A DNA stretch of 64,000 bases from Candidatus Binataceae bacterium (GCA_035524375.1 DATKOZ010000033.1:26842-90841), one strand, 5' to 3'; shown: positions 10,593 through 63,308, numbered from the stretch's first letter. Made by a program: numbers and translations. Notes: generated by a model from the sequence alone, not told the origin.

Positions 10593-12884
10593 TTATTCCC
10601 TCTGGTCCGGAACCATTCTTACTTTGCCGGGTTTTGGGGAGCGCGTCCCCCGCCCTGCCGCGCCGGCCGCCGCACCGGTGGCGGCACCGGCTCCCTTGCG
10701 GCCGCGAGTCTTGATCAGGGGAGCGACGTCGTCGCCGAGGCCTTTGATCTTGTGCGCTTCAAGGCGGCCGCGCGCCGATTCGCTGGCGTGGCGATGGGCC
10801 GAGCCGGGAGGAGTCGAAGCCTTCGCGGCGCGCCGCTGCTCCGCCTCTTGGGCGGCCGTATCCATGCCAAATACCTTGCGCTCCAGCCGTTTAATTTTGT
10901 CGCGCAGCTCCGCCGCCCGTTCGTAATCAAGCGCCTCTGCCGCTTCCATCATCTCGCGCCGGAGATCCGTAATTCGATCCGGCAGATCGTGCGCGGGAAT
11001 CGCCTCTTCGTCCTTGGCCGGCTTGCCATCGACTTCGGGCACGATCGCCCATTCGGGCGAATACATTTCGACCAGGGACGCATCGATCGCTTTGACGATC
11101 GATTTCGGTGTTATCCCATGCTCGCGGTTGTATGCCAGCTGCTTGGCGCGCCGGCGGTTGGTTTCATCGATTGCCTGCTTCATCGAGCCGGTAACGGCAT
11201 CCGCATACATGATGACGCGGCCGTTGACGTTGCGGGCCGCACGCCCGATTGTCTGAATCAGCGAACGAGCCGATCTCAGGTAGCCCTCCTTGTCGGCATC
11301 GAGAATCGCAACCAGTGAAACTTCGGGCAGGTCCAGTCCTTCGCGCAAAAGATTGATTCCCACGAGCACGTCGAACTCGCCGCCGCGCAGGCTGCGGATA
11401 ATCTCGACGCGTTCGATAGTCTCGATGTCCGAATGGAGGTAGCGGACGCGCACGCCCAGGTCGTGGTAGTAGTCGGTCAGGTCCTCGGCCATCTTTTTGG
11501 TCAGGCAAGTGACGAGCACGCGCTCGGAGGCGGCGACCCGCTTGCGGATTTCTTCGAGGAGATCGTCGACCTGCGTTCCGGCCTTGCGGACTTCGATCTC
11601 CGGATCGATCAGGCCGGTTGGGCGAATCAGCTGTTCGACGACCAGCCCCTCGGATTTTTTCAGTTCGTAATCGCCGGGTGTTGCCGAGACGTACACGGCC
11701 TGGTTCACGTGCTGTTCCCATTCCTCGAAATTCAGCGGGCGATTATCCAGTGCCGAAGGCAATCGAAACCCAAAATCGACGAGCACCTGCTTGCGCGATC
11801 TGTCGCCGCGATACATCCCGCCCACCTGCGGAATCGTCACGTGGCTTTCGTCGATGAAGAACAGCGACTCCTTTGGGAAATAATCCAGCAGCGTTGGGGG
11901 AGCCTGCCCCGGCGCGCGGCCCGTCAAATGCCGTGAATAGTTTTCGATTCCGGTGCAGAAGCCCATCTCGGCCAGCAACTCAAGGTCGTACATCGTACGT
12001 TGTTCCAGGCGCTGTGCCTCGACTAGGCGGTTATCCTTGCGAAAGAATTCGAGCCGCTCCTTAAGTTCGGCGCGGATGTTTCGCACTGCGGTTTCCATCC
12101 GATCGGAGGTCGTCACATAGTGCGAGGCCGGGTAGATCGCGATGCTCTTCAAGCGGCGCAGCGACTTTCCCCGCAACGCATCGATTTCATGGATTGCCTC
12201 GACCTGGTCGCCGAAAAATTCGATCCGCACCGCCGCGCGCTCTTCGTAGGCGGGAAAAATTTCAATTGTGTCGCCGCGCACGCGGAAAGTGCCACGATGA
12301 AAATCGTAATCGTTGCGCTGGTAGTGGATGTCCACCAGCTTGCGCAGCACCCGATCTCGTTCGATCGTCTGGCCTTCCTCCAGAAACACCAGCATCTCGA
12401 AGTACACTTCCGGCTCGCCCAAGCCGTAGATGCAAGAAACCGACGCGACGATCAGGACATCGTTGCGCTCGAGCAACGCCTTGGTAGCGGAATGGCGCAG
12501 CTTGTCGATCTCGTCATTGATGCTGGAATCTTTCTCGATGTAGGTATCCGTTGACGGGACGTACGCCTCCGGCTGGTAGTAGTCGTAGTACGAGACGAAG
12601 TACCGGACCGCATTTTCGGGAAACAAGCTCTTGAACTCGTTGTAAAGCTGCGCTGCGAGCGTCTTGTTCGGCGCCATCACCAGCGCAGGCCGATTTATCT
12701 GCGCGATGACATTAGCCATCGTAAAGGTTTTTCCGGAACCGGTGACACCCAACAGCACCTGATGCGGCACTGCGGCCCGAACGTTCTTTACGATCGCTTC
12801 GATAGCGGCGGGCTGGTCACCCTCGGGCTGATAGCCCGATACCAGTTGAAAGGTTCCACCCCTGCCGCGCGATTGTGACAGCAT
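10593..12884 (-). CDS. uvrB: Excinuclease ABC subunit B with an ~85-aa basic Ala/Gly/Lys-rich C-terminal extension
   Basis: Helicase motifs ([12 protein letters not shown]), a beta-hairpin region, the UVR domain ([22 protein letters not shown]), then a tail ...[39 protein letters not shown]. Confidence 0.9.
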
Positions 12885-13140
12885 GATTAAAGCCCCACTC
12901 TAGCAGGGTTTTCAGTCCGTTCCGAATTGGCGCGTATCCCAAATCGTCTAATCCCCAGGACAGAATGAGGAGCCGCATATGGAAAACGAACGAAAAATGC
13001 CCAGTAGAACAGGCCTCAAGAATGCAATAGATTGCGTGGTAGCGATGGCATGCGGGTTGCTGTGGTGGGTAGGTGTAAGAGCAGCCTCGGATGCGACTGC
13101 GGATCGGCGGATTTAGGCGGGGAAGAGTCGGGATCGGGAT

Positions 13141-13620
13141 ATGAAAATCGCGCGGGTTATGGCGGCGTCGGCGGTAATCGCATCCGCGATGACGGCAACT
13201 TCTCTGGCGCAAGAAATCCCATTGAAACCAGCGGCCGCTACTCCGGCCAGCAGTCCATCGTCGCCGGCTGTGCCAAAGGTCACCCATCGCGAGCGCGAGG
13301 AATACAAGCGATTTCTTCGCCGCCGCCCAAAGTTGAAAGCAGAACTGGAAAGGAACCCAAACCTGATCTACGACAAAGATTTTCTGCTAAAGAACCAGGA
13401 TTTCAGCGATTTCCTCGACGCACATCCAAACTTCAGAAAGGGCGTGCAACCGGGAACGGAATCGAGTTCTTCGACGGTGAACGAGCGCGAACAGCGCCGA
13501 CGGGAGAGAATCAAGCGGCGCGAAAAGCAGCTTTCCAACATGACCAAATCACATCACGAACAACCGCCACCAGCTTCGCCGGCTTCCGCCAGCGAACCCG
13601 CCCCCGTGCCGACGCACTAG
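13141..13620 (+). CDS. Secreted protein, paralog 1 of a small 'HP/NP-repeat' family (uncharacterised)
   Basis: Signal peptide MKIARVMAASAVIASAMTATSLAQE, then the module EYKRFLRRRPKLKAELERNPNLIYDKDFLLKNQDFSDFLDAHPNFRKG, then a charged low-complexity tail. It shares the module with the ORFs at 13642, 14349 and 62934. Confidence 0.7.
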   Translation: MKIARVMAASAVIASAMTATSLAQEIPLKPAAATPASSPSSPAVPKVTHREREEYKRFLRRRPKLKAELERNPNLIYDKDFLLKNQDFSDFLDAHPNFRKGVQPGTESSSSTVNEREQRRRERIKRREKQLSNMTKSHHEQPPPASPASASEPAPVPTH

Positions 13621-13641
13621 CAGACCGACTGGAATGCGCAA

Positions 13642-14238
13642 TTGAGAAATCGCTGCCTTCAATCCATCGTCGCCGGCGCAATACTATCGTTGTCGCTGAC
13701 ACCGCCTGCGCATGCACAGGGTGCGCCGCCGGGTTTCGGCATCCTCATGCGTGCGCAAAAACTTCATATGCTGCACATGGTTCCGGTACCTGAGCCGGTG
13801 GATCCCTTTCAAAAATATTACAACGAGCATCCGGATTTCGGAAAAGAGCTTCAGGAATTTGTCATTACATACAAAAAGACCAATCCAAAATCATACGATC
13901 AAGCGCAGAACAAATATTTGCTGCTCAATCCAAAGTGGCGAGCGCGCCAACCACGGGAGCTAAACGAGTTTCTGCAACGCCACCCCGACGCCTGGAAGGC
14001 CGCACTCTCCGCAGTGCAGTACTACTGGACCCCAGAGTTCTCAAAGTTTATGGATGACAAGCCGAAGCTGGCAGCGGAACTGAGGAACAACCCTGAATTG
14101 ATGTACGACGACAAATGGCTCGCAAAAAACCCCAAAGTCAAAGCATTTCTGCGTACGCATCGAGACGTGCTTTGCGACGTTTATTCATCGCCCCACTTCT
14201 CAGGCGCCAAAGCTGCGGATTCGATGCGAGCGCATTGA
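13642..14238 (+). CDS. Secreted protein, paralog 2 of the HP/NP-repeat family
   Basis: TTG start at 13642 (no in-frame ATG upstream). Signal peptide MRNRCLQSIVAGAILSLSLTPPAHAQ. Modules: YNEHPDFGKELQEF, LNEFLQRHPDAWKAAL, FMDDKPKLAAELRNNPELMYDDKWLAKNPKVKAFLRTHRDVL. Confidence 0.7.
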   Translation: MRNRCLQSIVAGAILSLSLTPPAHAQGAPPGFGILMRAQKLHMLHMVPVPEPVDPFQKYYNEHPDFGKELQEFVITYKKTNPKSYDQAQNKYLLLNPKWRARQPRELNEFLQRHPDAWKAALSAVQYYWTPEFSKFMDDKPKLAAELRNNPELMYDDKWLAKNPKVKAFLRTHRDVLCDVYSSPHFSGAKAADSMRAH

Positions 14239-14348
14239 CCGAGCGTGTATCAGGAGAATTTGTGTTACGTAATAACGGATAACTACCGAGCGGAACGCAC
14301 AATTCATCGCGTCGCCCGGCCAAACAGGAGGCCCAGCGGGAAAAACTT

Positions 14349-15077
14349 ATGAAACGAGGCAAACTTTTCGCAATCATCGCGATTTTGCTTTTGGCAACCA
14401 CGGCGCCGGCAATGGCTCAATACCCGGCTCCACACGGAGGATATTCTTCGATTCCATATTTCGCGAATTTGCCGGAAAGCAAAGATTTCCGGATGTTCGC
14501 GGAGCAGCATCCCGACATGCTTCAGCAATTGCAGAGCAAGCCGGGTGAAATTTTCAATCCCAATTGGCGATCACAGCATCCCTACTTGGAGCAATATTTC
14601 CAGAATCATCCGCAGACTTGGTATGCAATTCGCAACCAAGCGCCAAATTATTGGGATCCGAATTTCCGCAATTTCATGAATGGCCAGAAGAAGGCGGGCG
14701 CTGAGCTACTTGCCAATCCCGACCTAATCTATAATCGGGCTTGGATTTCGAGCCATCCCCGGGTTGCGGAATATTTGAAGACTCACCCTCAAGTGTTACG
14801 CACCATCGAAGTTAAGGCCGGCCGGCCTGAATATCCCATCCCTCCTTCAGCTCCTCATGGCTGGGGTGACTATGACGATCATCATGAATGGCACGACTAC
14901 GGCTGGTGGCAGGAGCATCATCCCAATTGGGCACGCAAGCATCATCCTGAGTGGTATGCCAACAAAGAGGCAATTGAGGAGCATCACCACGAGATGCAGC
15001 AGGAACACCATCACGATCATGGGCACGACAATGATCATCACGATCATCATGGCGACCATGGGCACGATCACCACTAA
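14349..15077 (+). CDS. Secreted protein, paralog 3 of the HP/NP-repeat family, with an extreme His-rich C-terminal tail (putative metal binding)
   Basis: Signal peptide MKRGKLFAIIAILLLATTAPAMAQ. Modules: FAEQHPDMLQQLQSKPGEIFNPNWRSQHPYLEQYFQNHPQ and FMNGQKKAGAELLANPDLIYNRAWISSHPRVAEYLKTHPQVL. Tail: HHEWHDYGWWQEHHPNWARKHHPEWY...EEHHHEMQQEHHHDHGHDNDHHDHHGDHGHDHH. Confidence 0.75.
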   Translation: MKRGKLFAIIAILLLATTAPAMAQYPAPHGGYSSIPYFANLPESKDFRMFAEQHPDMLQQLQSKPGEIFNPNWRSQHPYLEQYFQNHPQTWYAIRNQAPNYWDPNFRNFMNGQKKAGAELLANPDLIYNRAWISSHPRVAEYLKTHPQVLRTIEVKAGRPEYPIPPSAPHGWGDYDDHHEWHDYGWWQEHHPNWARKHHPEWYANKEAIEEHHHEMQQEHHHDHGHDNDHHDHHGDHGHDHH

Positions 15078-15090
15078 TAAATGAGCTCCG

Positions 15091-15124
15091 TCCGGCGGGG
15101 ATACTAAAGCGGGCCCCCGCCGGA
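15091..15124 (+). terminator. GC-rich hairpin downstream of the 14349..15077 gene (10-bp perfect stem TCCGGCGGGG / CCCCGCCGGA); no U-tract
   Basis: Inverted repeat read directly from the sequence, 14 nt after the stop. Factor-independent terminators without U-tracts are common in high-GC genomes. Confidence 0.4.
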
Positions 15125-15219
15125 CAAGCGGCAGTCGGAAGACTGAACCTCAACCTGGGCCAGTAATTCGCTGCAGGATAACCATCACGAAACAAGTTCG
15201 TAACTTTCCCCGGGGCCTG

Positions 15220-15249
15220 TTGCTTTTTACCGCCTGATATCACTATATT
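15220..15249 (+). promoter_or_regulatory. Candidate sigma70-like promoter for the OmpA-like gene (TTGCTT, 18-nt spacer, TATATT)
   Basis: Hexamers at 15220-15225 and 15244-15249. An RBS (GAGGAG, 6-nt spacer) precedes ATG 15343. Confidence 0.3.
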
Positions 15250-15342
15250 TCCCGGTCAATATGGACCTTTGGCGGCCTGCCAGCGTAACAGTGGAGCCGG
15301 CCAGGGTTGGGCGAAAACTTGCATGTGGTGAGGAGCAGCTTG

Positions 15343-16047
15343 ATGAAAGGAAAGCCGGGATTGGCCAAATCGATAGCCGCGATTGCGGGTGCCGCCCTTT
15401 TAACGGGCGGATTGACCGGTTGCGCGTCGATGCGCCAGCCCCGCGAATGGGGCAAATGCACTGTGATGGGCGCACTGGCGGGTGCTGCGGCCGGTGCGGC
15501 CAGTGGCATCGTGATTGCCGACAACGCCCATGGCAGCGGCAGCAGCTCAACCGACGCCCGCGCATTCGGCGGAATCGGCGGCGCAGCGGCAGGCGCCCTA
15601 ATCGGCGGCTTGACCGGACATTTCCTGTGCGACGAAATTATTCCACCACCGCCGCCGCCTCCTCCCCCGCCACCACCACCTCCACCGCCTCCTGCCGAGC
15701 CGGTAAAGCAAAAGCTCGTCCTGCGAGGCATCCATTTCGATTTTAACAAGTACGATATCCGGCCCGGCGATGCTGCTGTGCTAGATGAAGCCGCCGGCAC
15801 CCTCAAGGCTAATCCGACCGTGACGGTGAACGTCAACGGCTACTGCGACGCAATCGGAAGCGTCGAGTACAACCTCAAGTTGTCAGACAAGCGCGCTGGC
15901 GCGGCGGTCGATTACCTTGTAAAACAGGGCATCCCGGCCACTCAGCTGATTCCGCACGGCTTCGGCAAGACCGATTTTGTGGCGACCAATGATACCGACG
16001 AAGGCCGGGCTCAGAACCGGCGCGTAGAGCTGGTACCGGTGCAATAA
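15343..16047 (+). CDS. OmpA-family lipoprotein: lipobox, Gly-zipper region, 19-residue poly-Pro linker, C-terminal OmpA peptidoglycan-binding domain
   Basis: MKGKPGLAKSIAAIAGAALLTGGLTGC (lipobox), Gly-rich stretches (GALAGAAAGAASG, GGIGGAAAGALIGG), PPPPPPPPPPPPPPPPPPP, then the OmpA_C signature NGYCDAIGSVEYNLKLSDKRAGAAVDYL...RAQNRRVEL. Confidence 0.85.
   Translation: MKGKPGLAKSIAAIAGAALLTGGLTGCASMRQPREWGKCTVMGALAGAAAGAASGIVIADNAHGSGSSSTDARAFGGIGGAAAGALIGGLTGHFLCDEIIPPPPPPPPPPPPPPPPPAEPVKQKLVLRGIHFDFNKYDIRPGDAAVLDEAAGTLKANPTVTVNVNGYCDAIGSVEYNLKLSDKRAGAAVDYLVKQGIPATQLIPHGFGKTDFVATNDTDEGRAQNRRVELVPVQ
15644..15693. repeat. Low-complexity CCN trinucleotide tract encoding the poly-Pro linker (poly-Gly on the opposite strand)
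   Basis: ccaccaccgccgccgcctcctcccccgccaccaccacctccaccgcctcct. It explains the spurious 197-aa Gly-rich antisense ORF 15243..15836. Confidence 0.8.
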
Positions 16048-16124: not shown

Positions 16125-16628
16125 ATGTCAAATCAAGGAAAATCAATCATGAAAGGGCTGGGCGGCGGCGCAATGATCGCAGCCCTGCTGTTCGTGTCGG
16201 GATGCGGCTGCACGTTGACGCCGCCGGCACCCCCGCCGGCTCCGGTTGCCGCCGCTGCGCCACCACCACCACCACCGGCCCCGATGCAGCAAAAAATCGT
16301 GCTGCGCGGAGTTCATTTCGATTTCAATATGTGGAACATTCGCCCCGGCGATGCCGCGGTGCTGGACGAAGCCGTACCAACGCTCAAGGCGAATCCCGGC
16401 GTGATGATTCACGTCAATGGCTATTGCGACATCATCGGCTCAGTGGAGGCCAACCAAAAGTTGTCGCAGGCCCGCGCCGGTTCGGTTACGGACTACCTGA
16501 TGAGACAGGGCTTGTATCCCAGCCAGTTCCTGCCTCGCGGCTATGGTAAGACCGACTTCGTCGCGACCAACAAGACCGAGGAAGGCCGCGCCCAGAACCG
16601 CCGGGTCGAGTTGGTACCTATCCAGTAA
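16125..16628 (+). CDS. OmpA-family lipoprotein, tandem paralog (Pro/Ala-rich linker + OmpA_C domain)
   Basis: GGGAGGG RBS 9 nt upstream of ATG 16125. Lipobox LLFVSGC. Linker TPPAPPPAPVAAAAPPPPPPAP. The OmpA_C domain is ~75% identical to that of 15343..16047 (NGYCDIIGSVEANQKLSQARAGSVTDYL...RAQNRRVEL). Confidence 0.85.
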   Translation: MSNQGKSIMKGLGGGAMIAALLFVSGCGCTLTPPAPPPAPVAAAAPPPPPPAPMQQKIVLRGVHFDFNMWNIRPGDAAVLDEAVPTLKANPGVMIHVNGYCDIIGSVEANQKLSQARAGSVTDYLMRQGLYPSQFLPRGYGKTDFVATNKTEEGRAQNRRVELVPIQ

Positions 16629-61280: not shown

Positions 61281-62348
61281 TCAGGTTGGCAGGTTGAGAG
61301 CTTGCTGCTGATCATAGGCAGCCAGCGCATCGATGACTGGATCGATCTCACCGTCGAGGACCTTGTCCAATTGATGGAGCGTGAGATTCACGCGATGATC
61401 GGTCACGCGCGATTGCGGAAAATTATAGGTGCGGATGCGCTCGGAGCGGTCCCCCGTCCCGATCATTGTGCGGCGCGCATCGGCAATCTTCGCGTGCTGC
61501 TCCGCCTGCGCCTGCTCGAGCAATCGGGCCCGCAAGACCTTTAGGGCGCGCGCCTTGTTCTTGTGCTGCGATTTTTCATCGCGGCAAACGATGACCATCC
61601 CGCTTGGGATGTGCGTGATGCGCACCGCGGAGTCGGTCGTGTTGACGCTCTGGCCGCCGGGGCCCGACGCGCGCATCACGTCGATTCGCAGGTCCTTCTC
61701 CTCATTGATGTTTACTTCGACCTCATCGGCTTCGGGCATCACGGCAACCGTCACCGCGGAGGTATGAATCCGCCCCGACGCTTCCGTCTTCGGCACCCGC
61801 TGCACGCGATGCACCCCGCCCTCATACTTGAGGCGCGAGTAGGCGCCGCGTCCACTGATGTTGGCGATCACTTCCTTGATTCCGCCCAAACCGGTGTCGC
61901 TCATGCTGAGCGGTTCGACCTTCCACCCGTGGCGTTCGGCGTATCGCGTGTACATCCGATATAGGTCACCGGCGAATAGCGACGCTTCCGCGCCGCCGGT
62001 TCCGGCGCGAATTTCCAGGATGACGTTCTTTTCGTCATTGGGATTGCGCGGAGTCATCAGCACCTTCAGCCGCTCTTCGAGGGCGGCTTGCCGTTTGAGC
62101 AACTCCGGCAATTCGGCGCGCGCGAGGTCTTTCAGGTCCTGGTCGGCGCCCTCGGCAAGTGCGCGATGCTCCTTGATTTCATCGGACAGGCGGATGTATT
62201 CGCGGGCGCATTGGACCGTCTCGCTCAATTGCGAGCGTTCCTTGCCGATACGCGCATATTCGCGCTGGTTCGCGATTACGGCCGGATCGCCAAACTTGCG
62301 CTCCAGCTCCGCAAATCGCTCCACTATTGCGTTTGCCTTGTCGAGCAT
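61281..62348 (-). CDS. prfA: Peptide chain release factor 1
   Basis: GGQ motif (SGPGGQSVNTTDSAVRITHIPSG) and the PxT-region typical of RF1. Confidence 0.9.
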   Translation of the reverse strand: MLDKANAIVERFAELERKFGDPAVIANQREYARIGKERSQLSETVQCAREYIRLSDEIKEHRALAEGADQDLKDLARAELPELLKRQAALEERLKVLMTPRNPNDEKNVILEIRAGTGGAEASLFAGDLYRMYTRYAERHGWKVEPLSMSDTGLGGIKEVIANISGRGAYSRLKYEGGVHRVQRVPKTEASGRIHTSAVTVAVMPEADEVEVNINEEKDLRIDVMRASGPGGQSVNTTDSAVRITHIPSGMVIVCRDEKSQHKNKARALKVLRARLLEQAQAEQHAKIADARRTMIGTGDRSERIRTYNFPQSRVTDHRVNLTLHQLDKVLDGEIDPVIDALAAYDQQQALNLPT

Positions 62349-62476: not shown

Positions 62477-62680
62477 CTACTTCTTGATGCCGTACTTGCG
62501 GTTGAAACGCTCGACGCGGCCGGCGGTATCAACCAAGCGCTGCTGCCCGGTGTAAAACGGATGGCACTTCGAACAAACTTCAACGTGAATCTCTTTCAGC
62601 GTTGAGCGCGTCTCAAAGGTGTTGCCGCAAGCACAGCTAACCATGCAGCGGCGATAATCAGGATGGATTTCAGCTTTCAT
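62477..62680 (-). CDS. rpmE: 50S ribosomal protein L31 (zinc-ribbon C+ form)
   Basis: [47 protein letters not shown] with four Cys. Confidence 0.9.
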
Positions 62681-62866
62681 TGTCTCTTTCCGGCCATGCG
62701 CACCGATTTTTCAAAAGGATATCATCGGTCCAGCGGCGGTTCAAACCACCTGCCGATGCTGTCTACTAAGATGAATCGGCCCTCGGCCTTCCGTCCTTGC
62801 CGGTTATTTTAACCACGATTTCCGAATTCGCCAGCCCCAACCCTCCGCCATGCGAATCGCCAAGGG

Positions 62867-62872
62867 TATAAT
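62867..62872 (+). promoter_or_regulatory. Perfect TATAAT -10 hexamer upstream of the 62934 gene; GGAGGA RBS at 62922-62927
   Basis: Read directly from the sequence. No convincing -35 element. Confidence 0.35.
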
Positions 62873-62933
62873 GAGAGCCGAAATCGAGGTTAGAATTTCG
62901 CAGGTTCGCCAAATGCGATATGGAGGACGGACG

Positions 62934-63308
62934 ATGAAGAAACTACCCGGTCTGCTAACGGCGGTGACATTCGTCGCCATTTCGGCAACTGGCCTATTCG
63001 CCCAGGAAAGCGGCTCGCAGCCACAGGTTAATGGCACGGTTGTTCGCGGCAATACGACGATAGTGTTTGAGGCTGCCAATACCAGCGACTTGCCGATGGA
63101 CCTGTATAAAATTTGGGGCGAATTCGAAAAATCGCATCCAGACATCGAACACGACCTTGCGTATAACCCTAAACTACTCGACGACGCCAACTACCTGCAT
63201 AAACATCCGGATTTCGCCAAATTGCTCGACGAAAATCCCGAACTGTTCAAAGAAATGAGGCGCAATCCGGGCAACTTCGCCGCCATCCCGCCCCGGCCGG
63301 GCGAATGA
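62934..63308 (+). CDS. Secreted protein, paralog 4 of the HP/NP-repeat family
   Basis: Signal peptide MKKLPGLLTAVTFVAISATGLFAQ. Module: EFEKSHPDIEHDLAYNPKLLDDANYLHKHPDFAKLLDENPELFKEMRRNPGNF. The track ORF starts at 62850 in non-coding leader. Confidence 0.65.
   Translation: MKKLPGLLTAVTFVAISATGLFAQESGSQPQVNGTVVRGNTTIVFEAANTSDLPMDLYKIWGEFEKSHPDIEHDLAYNPKLLDDANYLHKHPDFAKLLDENPELFKEMRRNPGNFAAIPPRPGE

Follow-up and report, generated by a model that had tools for sequence, protein, structure and literature searches.

A histidine-tailed, probably periplasmic protein of the Binataceae and its candidate role in metal binding

A predicted protein of 242 residues, encoded in a 64,000-nucleotide stretch of DNA from a Candidatus Binataceae bacterium (the window, by which we mean the whole stretch analysed), begins with what looks like an export signal and ends in a run of His, Asp and Gly. 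The combination raises the question of whether the protein, hereafter p3, binds metal ions in the periplasm and what such binding would be for, as an earlier note made from the DNA sequence had proposed.

The p3 protein and its paralogs

Translation of the window places p3 in an ORF with an ATG start at positions 14349-15077 of the forward strand, and the product is identical to the NCBI entry VMU16_06110, a 'hypothetical protein' of a Candidatus Binataceae MAG. The reading frame is backed by homology both to the paralogs (phmmer) and to 943 family representatives (HMMER), and the GC content of the ORF (51% versus 59% for the window) fits its His/Asn/Tyr/Lys-rich composition. The earlier note had described an ORF with a signal peptide and an extreme His/Asp tail; all of these elements are present, and the tail was quoted correctly. 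It had also put the number of His in the last 70 residues at about 26, which holds as regards His-richness and fails as regards the figure, our count being 23, with 16 in the last 40 residues, 15 in the last 30 and 13 in the last 25. Of the last 70 residues, 18 are Asp or Glu. Over its whole length p3 contains 30 His in 242 residues (12.4%) against a background of 1.7% in conserved neighbour proteins of related loci, a difference that excludes chance. From the N-terminus to the C-terminus the protein is made up as follows:

14349-14417, forward strand: signal peptide MKRGKLFAIIAILLLATTAPAMA (residues 1-23), read from the sequence, with predicted cleavage before Q24
14478-14816, forward strand: two MHB-like helical repeat units (residues about 44-156) with [F/Y/W]-x-x-x-H-P helix starts
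14859-14957, forward strand: Trp/His module GWGDYDDHHEWHDYGWWQEHHPNWARKHHPEWY (residues 171-203), a predicted beta-hairpin followed by short helices
14958-15017, forward strand: E/H-rich helix ANKEAIEEHHHEMQQEHHHD (residues 204-223) with two His triplets 8 residues apart
15018-15077, forward strand: disordered His/Asp/Gly tail HGHDNDHHDHHGDHGHDHH (residues 224-242) and stop codon

Inspected by eye, the N-terminus has the n-, h- and c-region layout of a Sec signal peptide and an AxA site (...APAMA followed by Q), and a signal peptide ending in A-x-A-Q is common to all 25 aligned family members. The signal region of p3 has no Cys and hence no lipobox, so that the protein is not a lipoprotein; we regard it as probably Sec-exported to the periplasm. 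An AF2 model built on a 66-sequence alignment (mean pLDDT 78) is all-helical over residues about 41-156 (pLDDT 88-96), passes through a disordered linker at residues 159-170 into the Trp/His module (pLDDT 80-93), and continues in a helix spanning residues 206-223, along which pLDDT drops from ~80 to 55. The last segment, residues 224-242, in which 11 of the 19 residues are His, is a low-confidence coil devoid of secondary structure (pLDDT 47-58).

Three relatives of p3 are encoded in the window, the last of them beside the gene for L31:

13141-13620, forward strand: p1 (159 aa), with a signal peptide, one MHB-like unit and a tail rich in K/R/E and P/A/S
13642-14238, forward strand: p2 (198 aa), with a signal peptide and two MHB-like helical units
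62850-63308, forward strand: p4, with one MHB-like unit; its real start is probably internal (MKKLPGLL...)
62477-62680, reverse strand: rpmE (L31), divergent from p4, with CxC and CxxC motifs

That p1, p2 and p4 are paralogs of p3, as had been claimed, is borne out by phmmer (p1 versus p2, E 4e-8; p2 versus p3, E 1e-20; p4 versus p1, E 4e-5), and among the four only p3 carries the Trp/His module and the His tail. A suggested connection between p4 and the adjacent L31 gene did not survive. Judged by its motifs, L31 is here the ordinary zinc-ribbon housekeeping form, the two genes are divergently transcribed, and p4 has no His tail. In other bacteria, the L31 that is regulated by Zur is the Cys-less paralog.

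Family relations of the repeats, the module and the tail

Scans of p1-p4 against Pfam and NCBIfam returned nothing above threshold. Weak matches to ScsC_N (15.1 bits), XPC-binding and GST_C_3, all of them on one short helix motif, were dismissed as chance. The 943 representatives (E<=1e-3) come from an exhaustive HMMER run with a profile of five sequences, and the family takes two forms. Architecture A comprises proteins of 300-750 aa with 3-8 tandem helical units that are poor in His and Trp. Proteins of architecture B are 150-280 aa long; they have a signal peptide, 1-2 helical units and 1-2 Trp/His modules, and in their C-terminal part an E/K/H-rich linker leads into an ending of the kind HGHGHD(N/H)D or HHHDHDHH. 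p3, with two units and one module, is of type B and has the most His-dense tail seen in the family; its residues 204-223 match the linker, which is variable in the relatives. Searches of the PDB with the family profile, with P0020 (a relative with several repeats) and with the tail of p3 gave nothing significant, and no sequence or fold kinship of p3 to any proven metal-binding protein was found in Pfam, NCBIfam, the PDB or by Foldseek.

A genome scan with an eight-sequence alignment located 76 family loci, often several per genome and nearly all in MAGs of soil and peat that are named Binatus/Binataceae or 'uncultured delta proteobacterium'; the sources are MAGs from acidic peat and soil (palsa, SPRUCE, SMAG, MFD). 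On the evidence here, the form bearing the Trp/His module appears confined to Binatia as far as sampled, the scan pattern being specific and possibly underestimating the taxonomic spread of this subfamily. Database names of the relatives are uninformative ('hypothetical protein', 'phage-related protein') and literature searches found no paper on the family. The carrier family is thus undescribed and its domain combination new; His-rich metal-binding tails as such are already known.

The consensus of the repeat unit, derived from 695 instances, is FDQFLDSHPEIAEQLRKNPSLINNPQFLKNHPELQAFLQDHPGVR and consists of three [F/Y]LxxHP helix starts. Against the Pfam MHB model (PF16525), the scores are 13.9 bits (E 0.062) for p3 and 16.3 bits for p2, both below the gathering threshold of 27.4, and on TIGR04529 the p3 and p2 proteins reach 14.8 and 20.7 bits versus a cutoff of 32. 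Relatives do pass the MHB threshold, namely P0006 (profile E 3e-77) with 65 bits and P0020 with 74 bits over four stretches, and 7 of 25 type-B members of the His-tail subfamily match MHB at E<=0.1. Since type-A relatives pass and p3 does not, we call its repeats MHB-like by transitive homology and not by direct membership.

In p3 the Trp/His module reads G-x-Y-D-x-x-H-x-W-H-D-x-x-W-W...HHPxW. Its consensus over 319 unique instances is [WD]-G-[AD]-Y-D-x-x-H-x-W-[HR]-D-x-x-W-W-H-x-[HN]-x-P-x-W-x-Y-x-[NH]-H-P-x-W, in which G, W10, W15, W16, W23, H28, P29 and W31 are near-invariant and three further positions are His in 60-69% of instances. BLASTP links the module to E. coli YaaX, a DUF2502 protein (E 2e-4), and the 319-instance profile aligns with YaaX in hhalign (E 8e-5, probability 61%) over 19 columns only, the common core being G-x-Y-x-x-x-H-W-[RH]-D-x-x-W-W. 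To judge from these alignments, the likeness is a resemblance and is insufficient to claim homology. Membership of DUF2502 (PF10697) was rejected, its HMM giving no match at E<=10 to the p3 tail or to four relatives while the YaaX control scored 51.8 bits.

How the tail fares in other genomes was read from 22 positional orthologs, that is, loci from the genome scan and from encoding contigs that repeat the gene order of the window. Their last 25 residues contain a median of 32% His (range 4-52%, p3 being the maximum at 52%), and the share is at least 16% in 21 of the 22; the exception, ortholog L011, has just one His in this segment and has lost most of its tail His. Ungapped tail identity among the orthologs is ~20%, both length and sequence vary, and the types of ending include ...HHHDHDHH, ...HHDHGNHDGQNHH and (HHEEAV)n...HHHQ. 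The tail also goes with the module: five or more of the last 20 residues are His in 22 of 43 representatives with the Trp/His module versus 1 of 111 without it, and in 35 of 61 further module-bearing family members. A terminal HGHG-H-D(N/H)D can be aligned over 25 family members, and the His-rich composition is kept also among members that are less than 40% identical. What is maintained in the tails of p3 orthologs is composition, not sequence, and such retention combined with sequence turnover is what one expects of a disordered tail that is chelating or titratable, not of neutral drift. The earlier note had held that a tail absent or variable in orthologs would speak for drift; the observed answer mostly favours the note's reading, in that 21 of 22 orthologs retain a His-rich end, though the sequence and length of the tail vary. 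We note that the Binataceae compared are close kin (uvrB ~84% identical), so that a short time since their separation may account for the synteny and for some of the tail retention.

A putative sigma-54 operon and its neighbours

The region ahead of p1 and the region behind p3 contain the following features:

13046-13061, forward strand: sigma-54 (-24/-12) promoter consensus TGGCATGCGGGTTGCT, between uvrB and p1, 80 nt before the p1 ATG
15090-15125, forward strand: GC-rich hairpin with an 11-bp perfect stem and a 14-nt loop, 13 nt past the p3 stop codon
15307-16047, forward strand: OmpA-family lipoprotein with a poly-Pro linker (Pfam OmpA, E 5e-22)
16125-16628, forward strand: second OmpA-family lipoprotein with a poly-Pro linker (Pfam OmpA, E 6e-19)

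When both strands of the 64 kb were searched for TGGCAY-N5-TTGCW, the site at 13046-13061 was the sole match in the window (0.19 expected). Of the 23 uvrB-syntenic loci, 19 have the motif at the corresponding place in the alignment, or 21 if one mismatch is allowed, versus a single strict match in the other 57 loci (~12 kb each). In the aligned motifs the GG and GC elements are invariant and the spacer is variable; the motif lies 45-75 nt ahead of a conserved ATGAAGCATCTC start in the syntenic loci, where further conserved blocks occur upstream (GACAACCGCTGAC, CTAACCGAAAT, TGCACCTTTTCGG and ATTTGCTAGGAT). Downstream of the site, p1 and p2 precede p3 with gaps of 21 nt (p1-p2) and 110 nt (p2-p3), and no sigma-70 consensus promoter was found in 12700-15400. 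The hairpin after p3 (RNA fold -28.5 kcal/mol, z = -2.2, no T-run) is possibly a terminator or a stabiliser of the operon transcript. The one promoter motif upstream, the spacing of the genes, the lack of another sigma-54 or sigma-70 site and the hairpin after p3 suggest that TGGCATGCGGGTTGCT is likely to be the promoter of a p1-p2-p3 operon whose genes would be co-transcribed. No GAFTGA enhancer-binding protein is encoded in the 64-kb window; GAFTGA/Walker-A enhancer-binding proteins occur in six Binatia loci, which implies that the sigma-54 machinery exists in the group.

The gene order common to the 22 orthologous loci runs from uvrB (reverse strand) through the family gene (forward strand), one to five OmpA-like poly-Pro lipoproteins and a 185-aa secreted protein to acyl-CoA dehydrogenases (reverse strand), and in the window a 230-nt gap containing the hairpin separates p3 from the first OmpA-like gene. 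In another Binatia clade, the neighbours of the family gene encode membrane proteins of the stress type, those with a BON domain among them. The genes next to p3 include no metal transporter, metallochaperone, metalloregulator or two-component system, and the 22 orthologous loci have none either, a metal-gene search of these neighbourhoods having returned only extra OmpA-like lipoproteins. Metal transporters, metalloregulators and haem-uptake genes are absent from the window as a whole. Neither are there haem-uptake or haem-degradation genes near p3 or its orthologs, or hydrogenase or urease genes adjoining p3. A search for operator motifs, which the earlier note had recommended, yielded no palindrome, there being no operator-like inverted repeats upstream of p1 or p3, and no Rfam family, metal riboswitches included, was detected at the p3 locus; the 22 orthologous loci likewise gave neither an operator-like palindrome nor a metal riboswitch.

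Readings of the His-rich tail and comparison with known systems

The proposal of the earlier note is partly supported. The reading that we favour, and put forward tentatively, is that p3 is an inducible periplasmic metal-binding buffer or chaperone, ZraP-like in its working and unrelated to ZraP. Once an enhancer-binding protein activates the sigma-54 promoter ahead of p1-p2-p3, and only then, p3 would be made; its flexible tail would offer several sites of low specificity for the chelation of divalent ions of transition metals (Zn, Ni, Cu, Co), the conserved His and Asp of the Trp/His module possibly adding to the chelation, and the protein would enlarge the capacity of the periplasm to buffer metals or serve as a chaperone dependent on metal. 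That p3 probably binds metal we infer from its composition, and the physiological role given to it is likewise inferred. On chemical grounds, a tail of this kind would almost certainly bind metal in vitro, and the physiological role is the uncertain step. Favouring metal binding are the His composition, its retention in orthologs, its association with the module and the attachment of a disordered tail to a confidently predicted core (pLDDT 80-96), together with a signal peptide in every aligned member, a conserved sigma-54 promoter that parallels that of zraP, the enhancer-binding proteins of Binatia genomes, the periplasmic metal enzymes of the Binatota and their acidic peat and soil habitats, in which metal ions are more soluble. 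The same reading is weakened by the lack of linked metal genes, operator or riboswitch, by conserved neighbours (uvrB, OmpA-like lipoproteins, acyl-CoA dehydrogenases) of other kinds, by the lack of kinship to proven metal binders, by the loss of His in L011 and by the close relatedness of the genomes compared. His-rich segments serve in addition in pH sensing and haem binding.

In keeping with the former of these uses, p3 might be a periplasmic chaperone or buffer responsive to envelope stress or pH, whose His (pKa ~6) would act as protonation switches in acidic soil instead of metal ligands and which would protect or organise envelope proteins such as the OmpA-like lipoproteins. We consider this unlikely, while noting that it would account for the conserved position of the gene beside one to five OmpA-family peptidoglycan-binding lipoproteins and for control by sigma-54, which is usual in genes of envelope stress (psp and zraP, for example). 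The BON-domain and stress-type neighbours of the other Binatia clade, the acidic habitats, and the motif that the Trp/His module shares with YaaX, ypeC and yaaX both being stress-induced (PMC5105897), point the same way. The OmpA adjacency, however, may be no more than gene order inherited among close kin; the 230-nt gap and the hairpin intervene, and the DUF2502 HMM matches no member of the family. The strict H-D/H-G alternation at the terminus of p3 likewise tells against such a role, being commoner in cation chelation than in pH sensing. Turning to the Trp-rich module and the repeats, p3 could be a structural or adaptor protein of the envelope that binds peptidoglycan, polysaccharide or OmpA-like lipoproteins and whose tail is incidental. 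The repeat architecture, with relatives of 3-8 units, the conserved OmpA-like neighbours and the likeness of Trp-rich modules to carbohydrate-binding surfaces all agree with this, but an 18-fold enrichment in His in 21 of 22 orthologs and the tight sigma-54 control would be left unexplained, and we judge it improbable.

Equally to be weighed is a haemophore-like function, in which p3 would bind haem or another tetrapyrrole through the MHB-like Tyr-x3-His, as in Rv0203, with the tail His as extra axial ligands. The scores of 65-74 bits that relatives reach on Pfam MHB lend it some substance, as does the alignment of the [F/Y]LxxHP family motif with GDYLDSHPE of Rv0203 (Y59-L-D-S-H63-P), which includes the ligands Tyr59 and His63 (PMC9846915); p3 itself contains Y-x3-H-P twice (Y83..H87 and Y142..H146), with no residue assigned as the counterpart of His89. 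Yet the Tyr position is occupied by Phe in 44-82% of the 695 repeats, so that haem ligation by Tyr is not a conserved property of the family, and p3 stays at 13.9 bits where 27.4 are called for. A Foldseek search of the PDB gave no match and did not recover 3MAY, and haem-uptake and haem-degradation genes are missing from the neighbourhood; a haemophore seems to us a poor prospect. Lastly, the tail could be the functionless product of neutral low-complexity drift, a view already disfavoured that we hold to be highly improbable. The wide variation in tail length and sequence, the single His in the last 25 residues of L011 and the extreme position of p3 (52% His) are what drift might produce. 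Against it, TRF found no tandem DNA repeat in the p3 tail that could drive slippage, which rejects a microsatellite origin; the composition is kept in 21 of 22 orthologs and in distant members below 40% identity; and of the 111 relatives without the Trp/His module, 110 have no such tail.

Returning to metal binding, the tentative preference stated above, p3 would matter because the Binatota, an uncultured phylum that abounds in peat and soil, depend on periplasmic enzymes that use Cu, lanthanides and Ni and are encoded in their genomes (PMC8262859). The locus is a compact, testable candidate for envelope metal handling in this group, and its conserved sigma-54 promoter offers a route to identifying the regulator and the cue for induction. 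p3 also links three poorly understood groups, namely MHB 'haemophore-related' repeats, DUF2502 and His-tailed periplasmic proteins. Taken further, the Trp/His module might be a new periplasmic metal- or haem-binding domain, distantly shared with YaaX/YpeC and deployed here with MHB-like repeats and a poly-His/Asp tail in a Binatota-specific sigma-54 system for envelope metal stress, a speculation to which we give little credence and which, if true, would open a first way into the function of the Binatia family and of DUF2502 alike. Should the function be only generic metal buffering, the finding is a modest one, as His-rich tails are common and their binding of metal in vitro is nearly guaranteed by chemistry.

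Disordered His-rich stretches, some with Asp/Glu/Gly, allow Hpn/Hpn-2, HypB, SlyD, UreE and CooJ to bind several Ni or Zn per chain. These proteins are cytoplasmic, their His-rich stretches being attached to GTPase, FKBP or UreE domains or free-standing, whereas p3 has a signal peptide and, in Pfam and NCBIfam, no CobW/HypB GTPase, FKBP or UreE domain. Hpn, HypB, SlyD and ZraP had been offered as models for p3 in the earlier note; a Pfam scan gives no homology to any of them. Closer in their location are ZinT, the ZnuA loop, PA4063 and DUF4198/Zcp, periplasmic proteins whose flexible His-rich segments capture Zn (PMC8561739, PMC12663993). They are Zur-regulated, lie beside importers and have folds unrelated to p3, the locus of which has no such context.

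Rv0203, whose haem ligands are Tyr59, His63 and His89 (PMC9846915), and the MHB proteins at large (PF16525, TIGR04529) resemble p3 in being secreted and all-helical and in starting helices with [Y/F]-L-x-x-H-P. The p3 family differs in its tandem units, in a Tyr that is not conserved, in the Trp/His module and His tail, and in belonging to a different phylum. Like p3, the DUF2502 proteins (PF10697; YaaX, YpeC) begin with a signal peptide, carry the motif G-x-Y-x-x-x-H-W-[RH]-D-x-G-W-W-x-x-H and end rich in His (...HDHHGGHGPGKHHR in YaaX), but they lack MHB-like repeats and the likeness spans 19 columns. In E. coli, an inhibitor of LolCDE lipoprotein transport, which sets off the Rcs response to envelope stress, induces ypeC 42-60x, and yaaX is given as RpoS stress-induced (PMC5105897).

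The proposed working of p3 has its analogue in zraP of E. coli and Salmonella, the gene for a zinc-resistance-associated periplasmic protein of the CpxP/Spy family. It depends on a sigma-54 promoter with its enhancer-binding protein and encodes a zinc-binding periplasmic chaperone answering to zinc and envelope stress (PMC4987338). p3 is set apart from ZraP, CpxP and Spy by the lack of any match to LTXXQ/Metal_resist (Pfam, E<=1) and of an LTXXQ motif in its sequence, and from ZraP by a fold of MHB-like repeats and a Trp/His module, by far more His, and by a locus with no adjacent ZraSR-like two-component system and no GAFTGA protein in the window. ZraP and p3 are alike in being small, mostly helical proteins with His-bearing termini, exported in the case of ZraP and probably so in that of p3, and a conserved sigma-54 consensus lies ahead of the putative p3 operon.

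Gene models around the p paralogs

The homology-supported reading frames of the paralogs p1 and p2, and the two housekeeping genes next to the fourth paralog, p4, lie in the window as follows:

13141-13620, p1, homology-supported gene
13642-14238, p2, homology-supported gene
61281-62348, minus strand, prfA
62477-62680, minus strand, rpmE (ribosomal protein L31), with CxC and CxxC zinc-ribbon motifs

In the ENA gene calls, p1 is overlaid by a 247-aa ORF read in a different frame (window 13050-13793), and p2 is cut short to 13747-14238. Public annotation is probably wrong at these two genes. The housekeeping genes rpmE and prfA are both of the ordinary kind and are oriented divergently from p4, the true start of which is probably the internal MKKLPGLL… rather than the first ATG at 62850.

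The uvrB intergenic region and the OmpA-family lipoproteins

Alignment of the intergenic region between uvrB and the family gene (loci L009-L030) revealed four further conserved blocks 5' of the sigma-54 motif, GACAACCGCTGAC, CTAACCGAAAT, TGCACCTTTTCGG and ATTTGCTAGGAT, all of which show poor conservation in the window. Sites for an activator or IHF are one possible reading of these blocks; the divergent uvrB promoter or SOS box is another.

The OmpA-family lipoproteins (window 15307-16047 and 16125-16628; also loci L006, L014, L018 and L021) have 17-25 consecutive prolines in addition to a segment rich in Gly and Ala, and their genes are amplified in tandem, one to five times, in Binatia relatives. 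We note that long shadow ORFs rich in poly-Gly/Arg/Trp are found on the opposite strand because of these poly-Pro runs.

Relatives of the family beyond the window

A second Binatia clade of proteins with the Trp/His module (L033-L065) consists of Gln-rich proteins of 320-430 aa with the C-terminal end GHEGGGHEGAVREAKK. Two example regions are:

3743-7667 in L040
9521-10882 in L047

Their genes neighbor those of a BON-domain protein, a holin-X-like membrane protein, a VTT/DedA protein and an AI-2E transporter fused to a B12-binding domain, joined at some loci by a gene for a glucan-synthase-like protein of ~1750 aa. The search of L033-L065 for the sigma-54 motif returned none. NtrC-type enhancer-binding proteins (GAFTGA and Walker A motifs) are encoded at six of these loci, 1-2 kb downstream of the clade member and beyond a 700-aa ORF:

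~7.8-10.4 kb in L051, L057, L058, L059, L063 and L065, strand opposite to the family gene, NtrC-type enhancer-binding protein genes

Three contigs carry the labels of other phyla, "Candidatus Acidiferrales" for L026 and L040 (DATNLS01…) and "uncultured Enterobacteriaceae" for L031. The uvrB of L026 is 84% identical to that of the window, with identical synteny. All three are probably mis-binned or mislabelled Binatia contigs.

Long relatives from the profile search (P0006-P0154) span 300-750 aa, with 3-8 MHB-like units and a Thr/Pro/Gly-rich tail at the end. The "phage-related protein" label that IMG attaches to some of them looks meaningless. Their recurrent terminus, ..KPKQ or ..PKPKP, may act as a signal for sorting or attachment.
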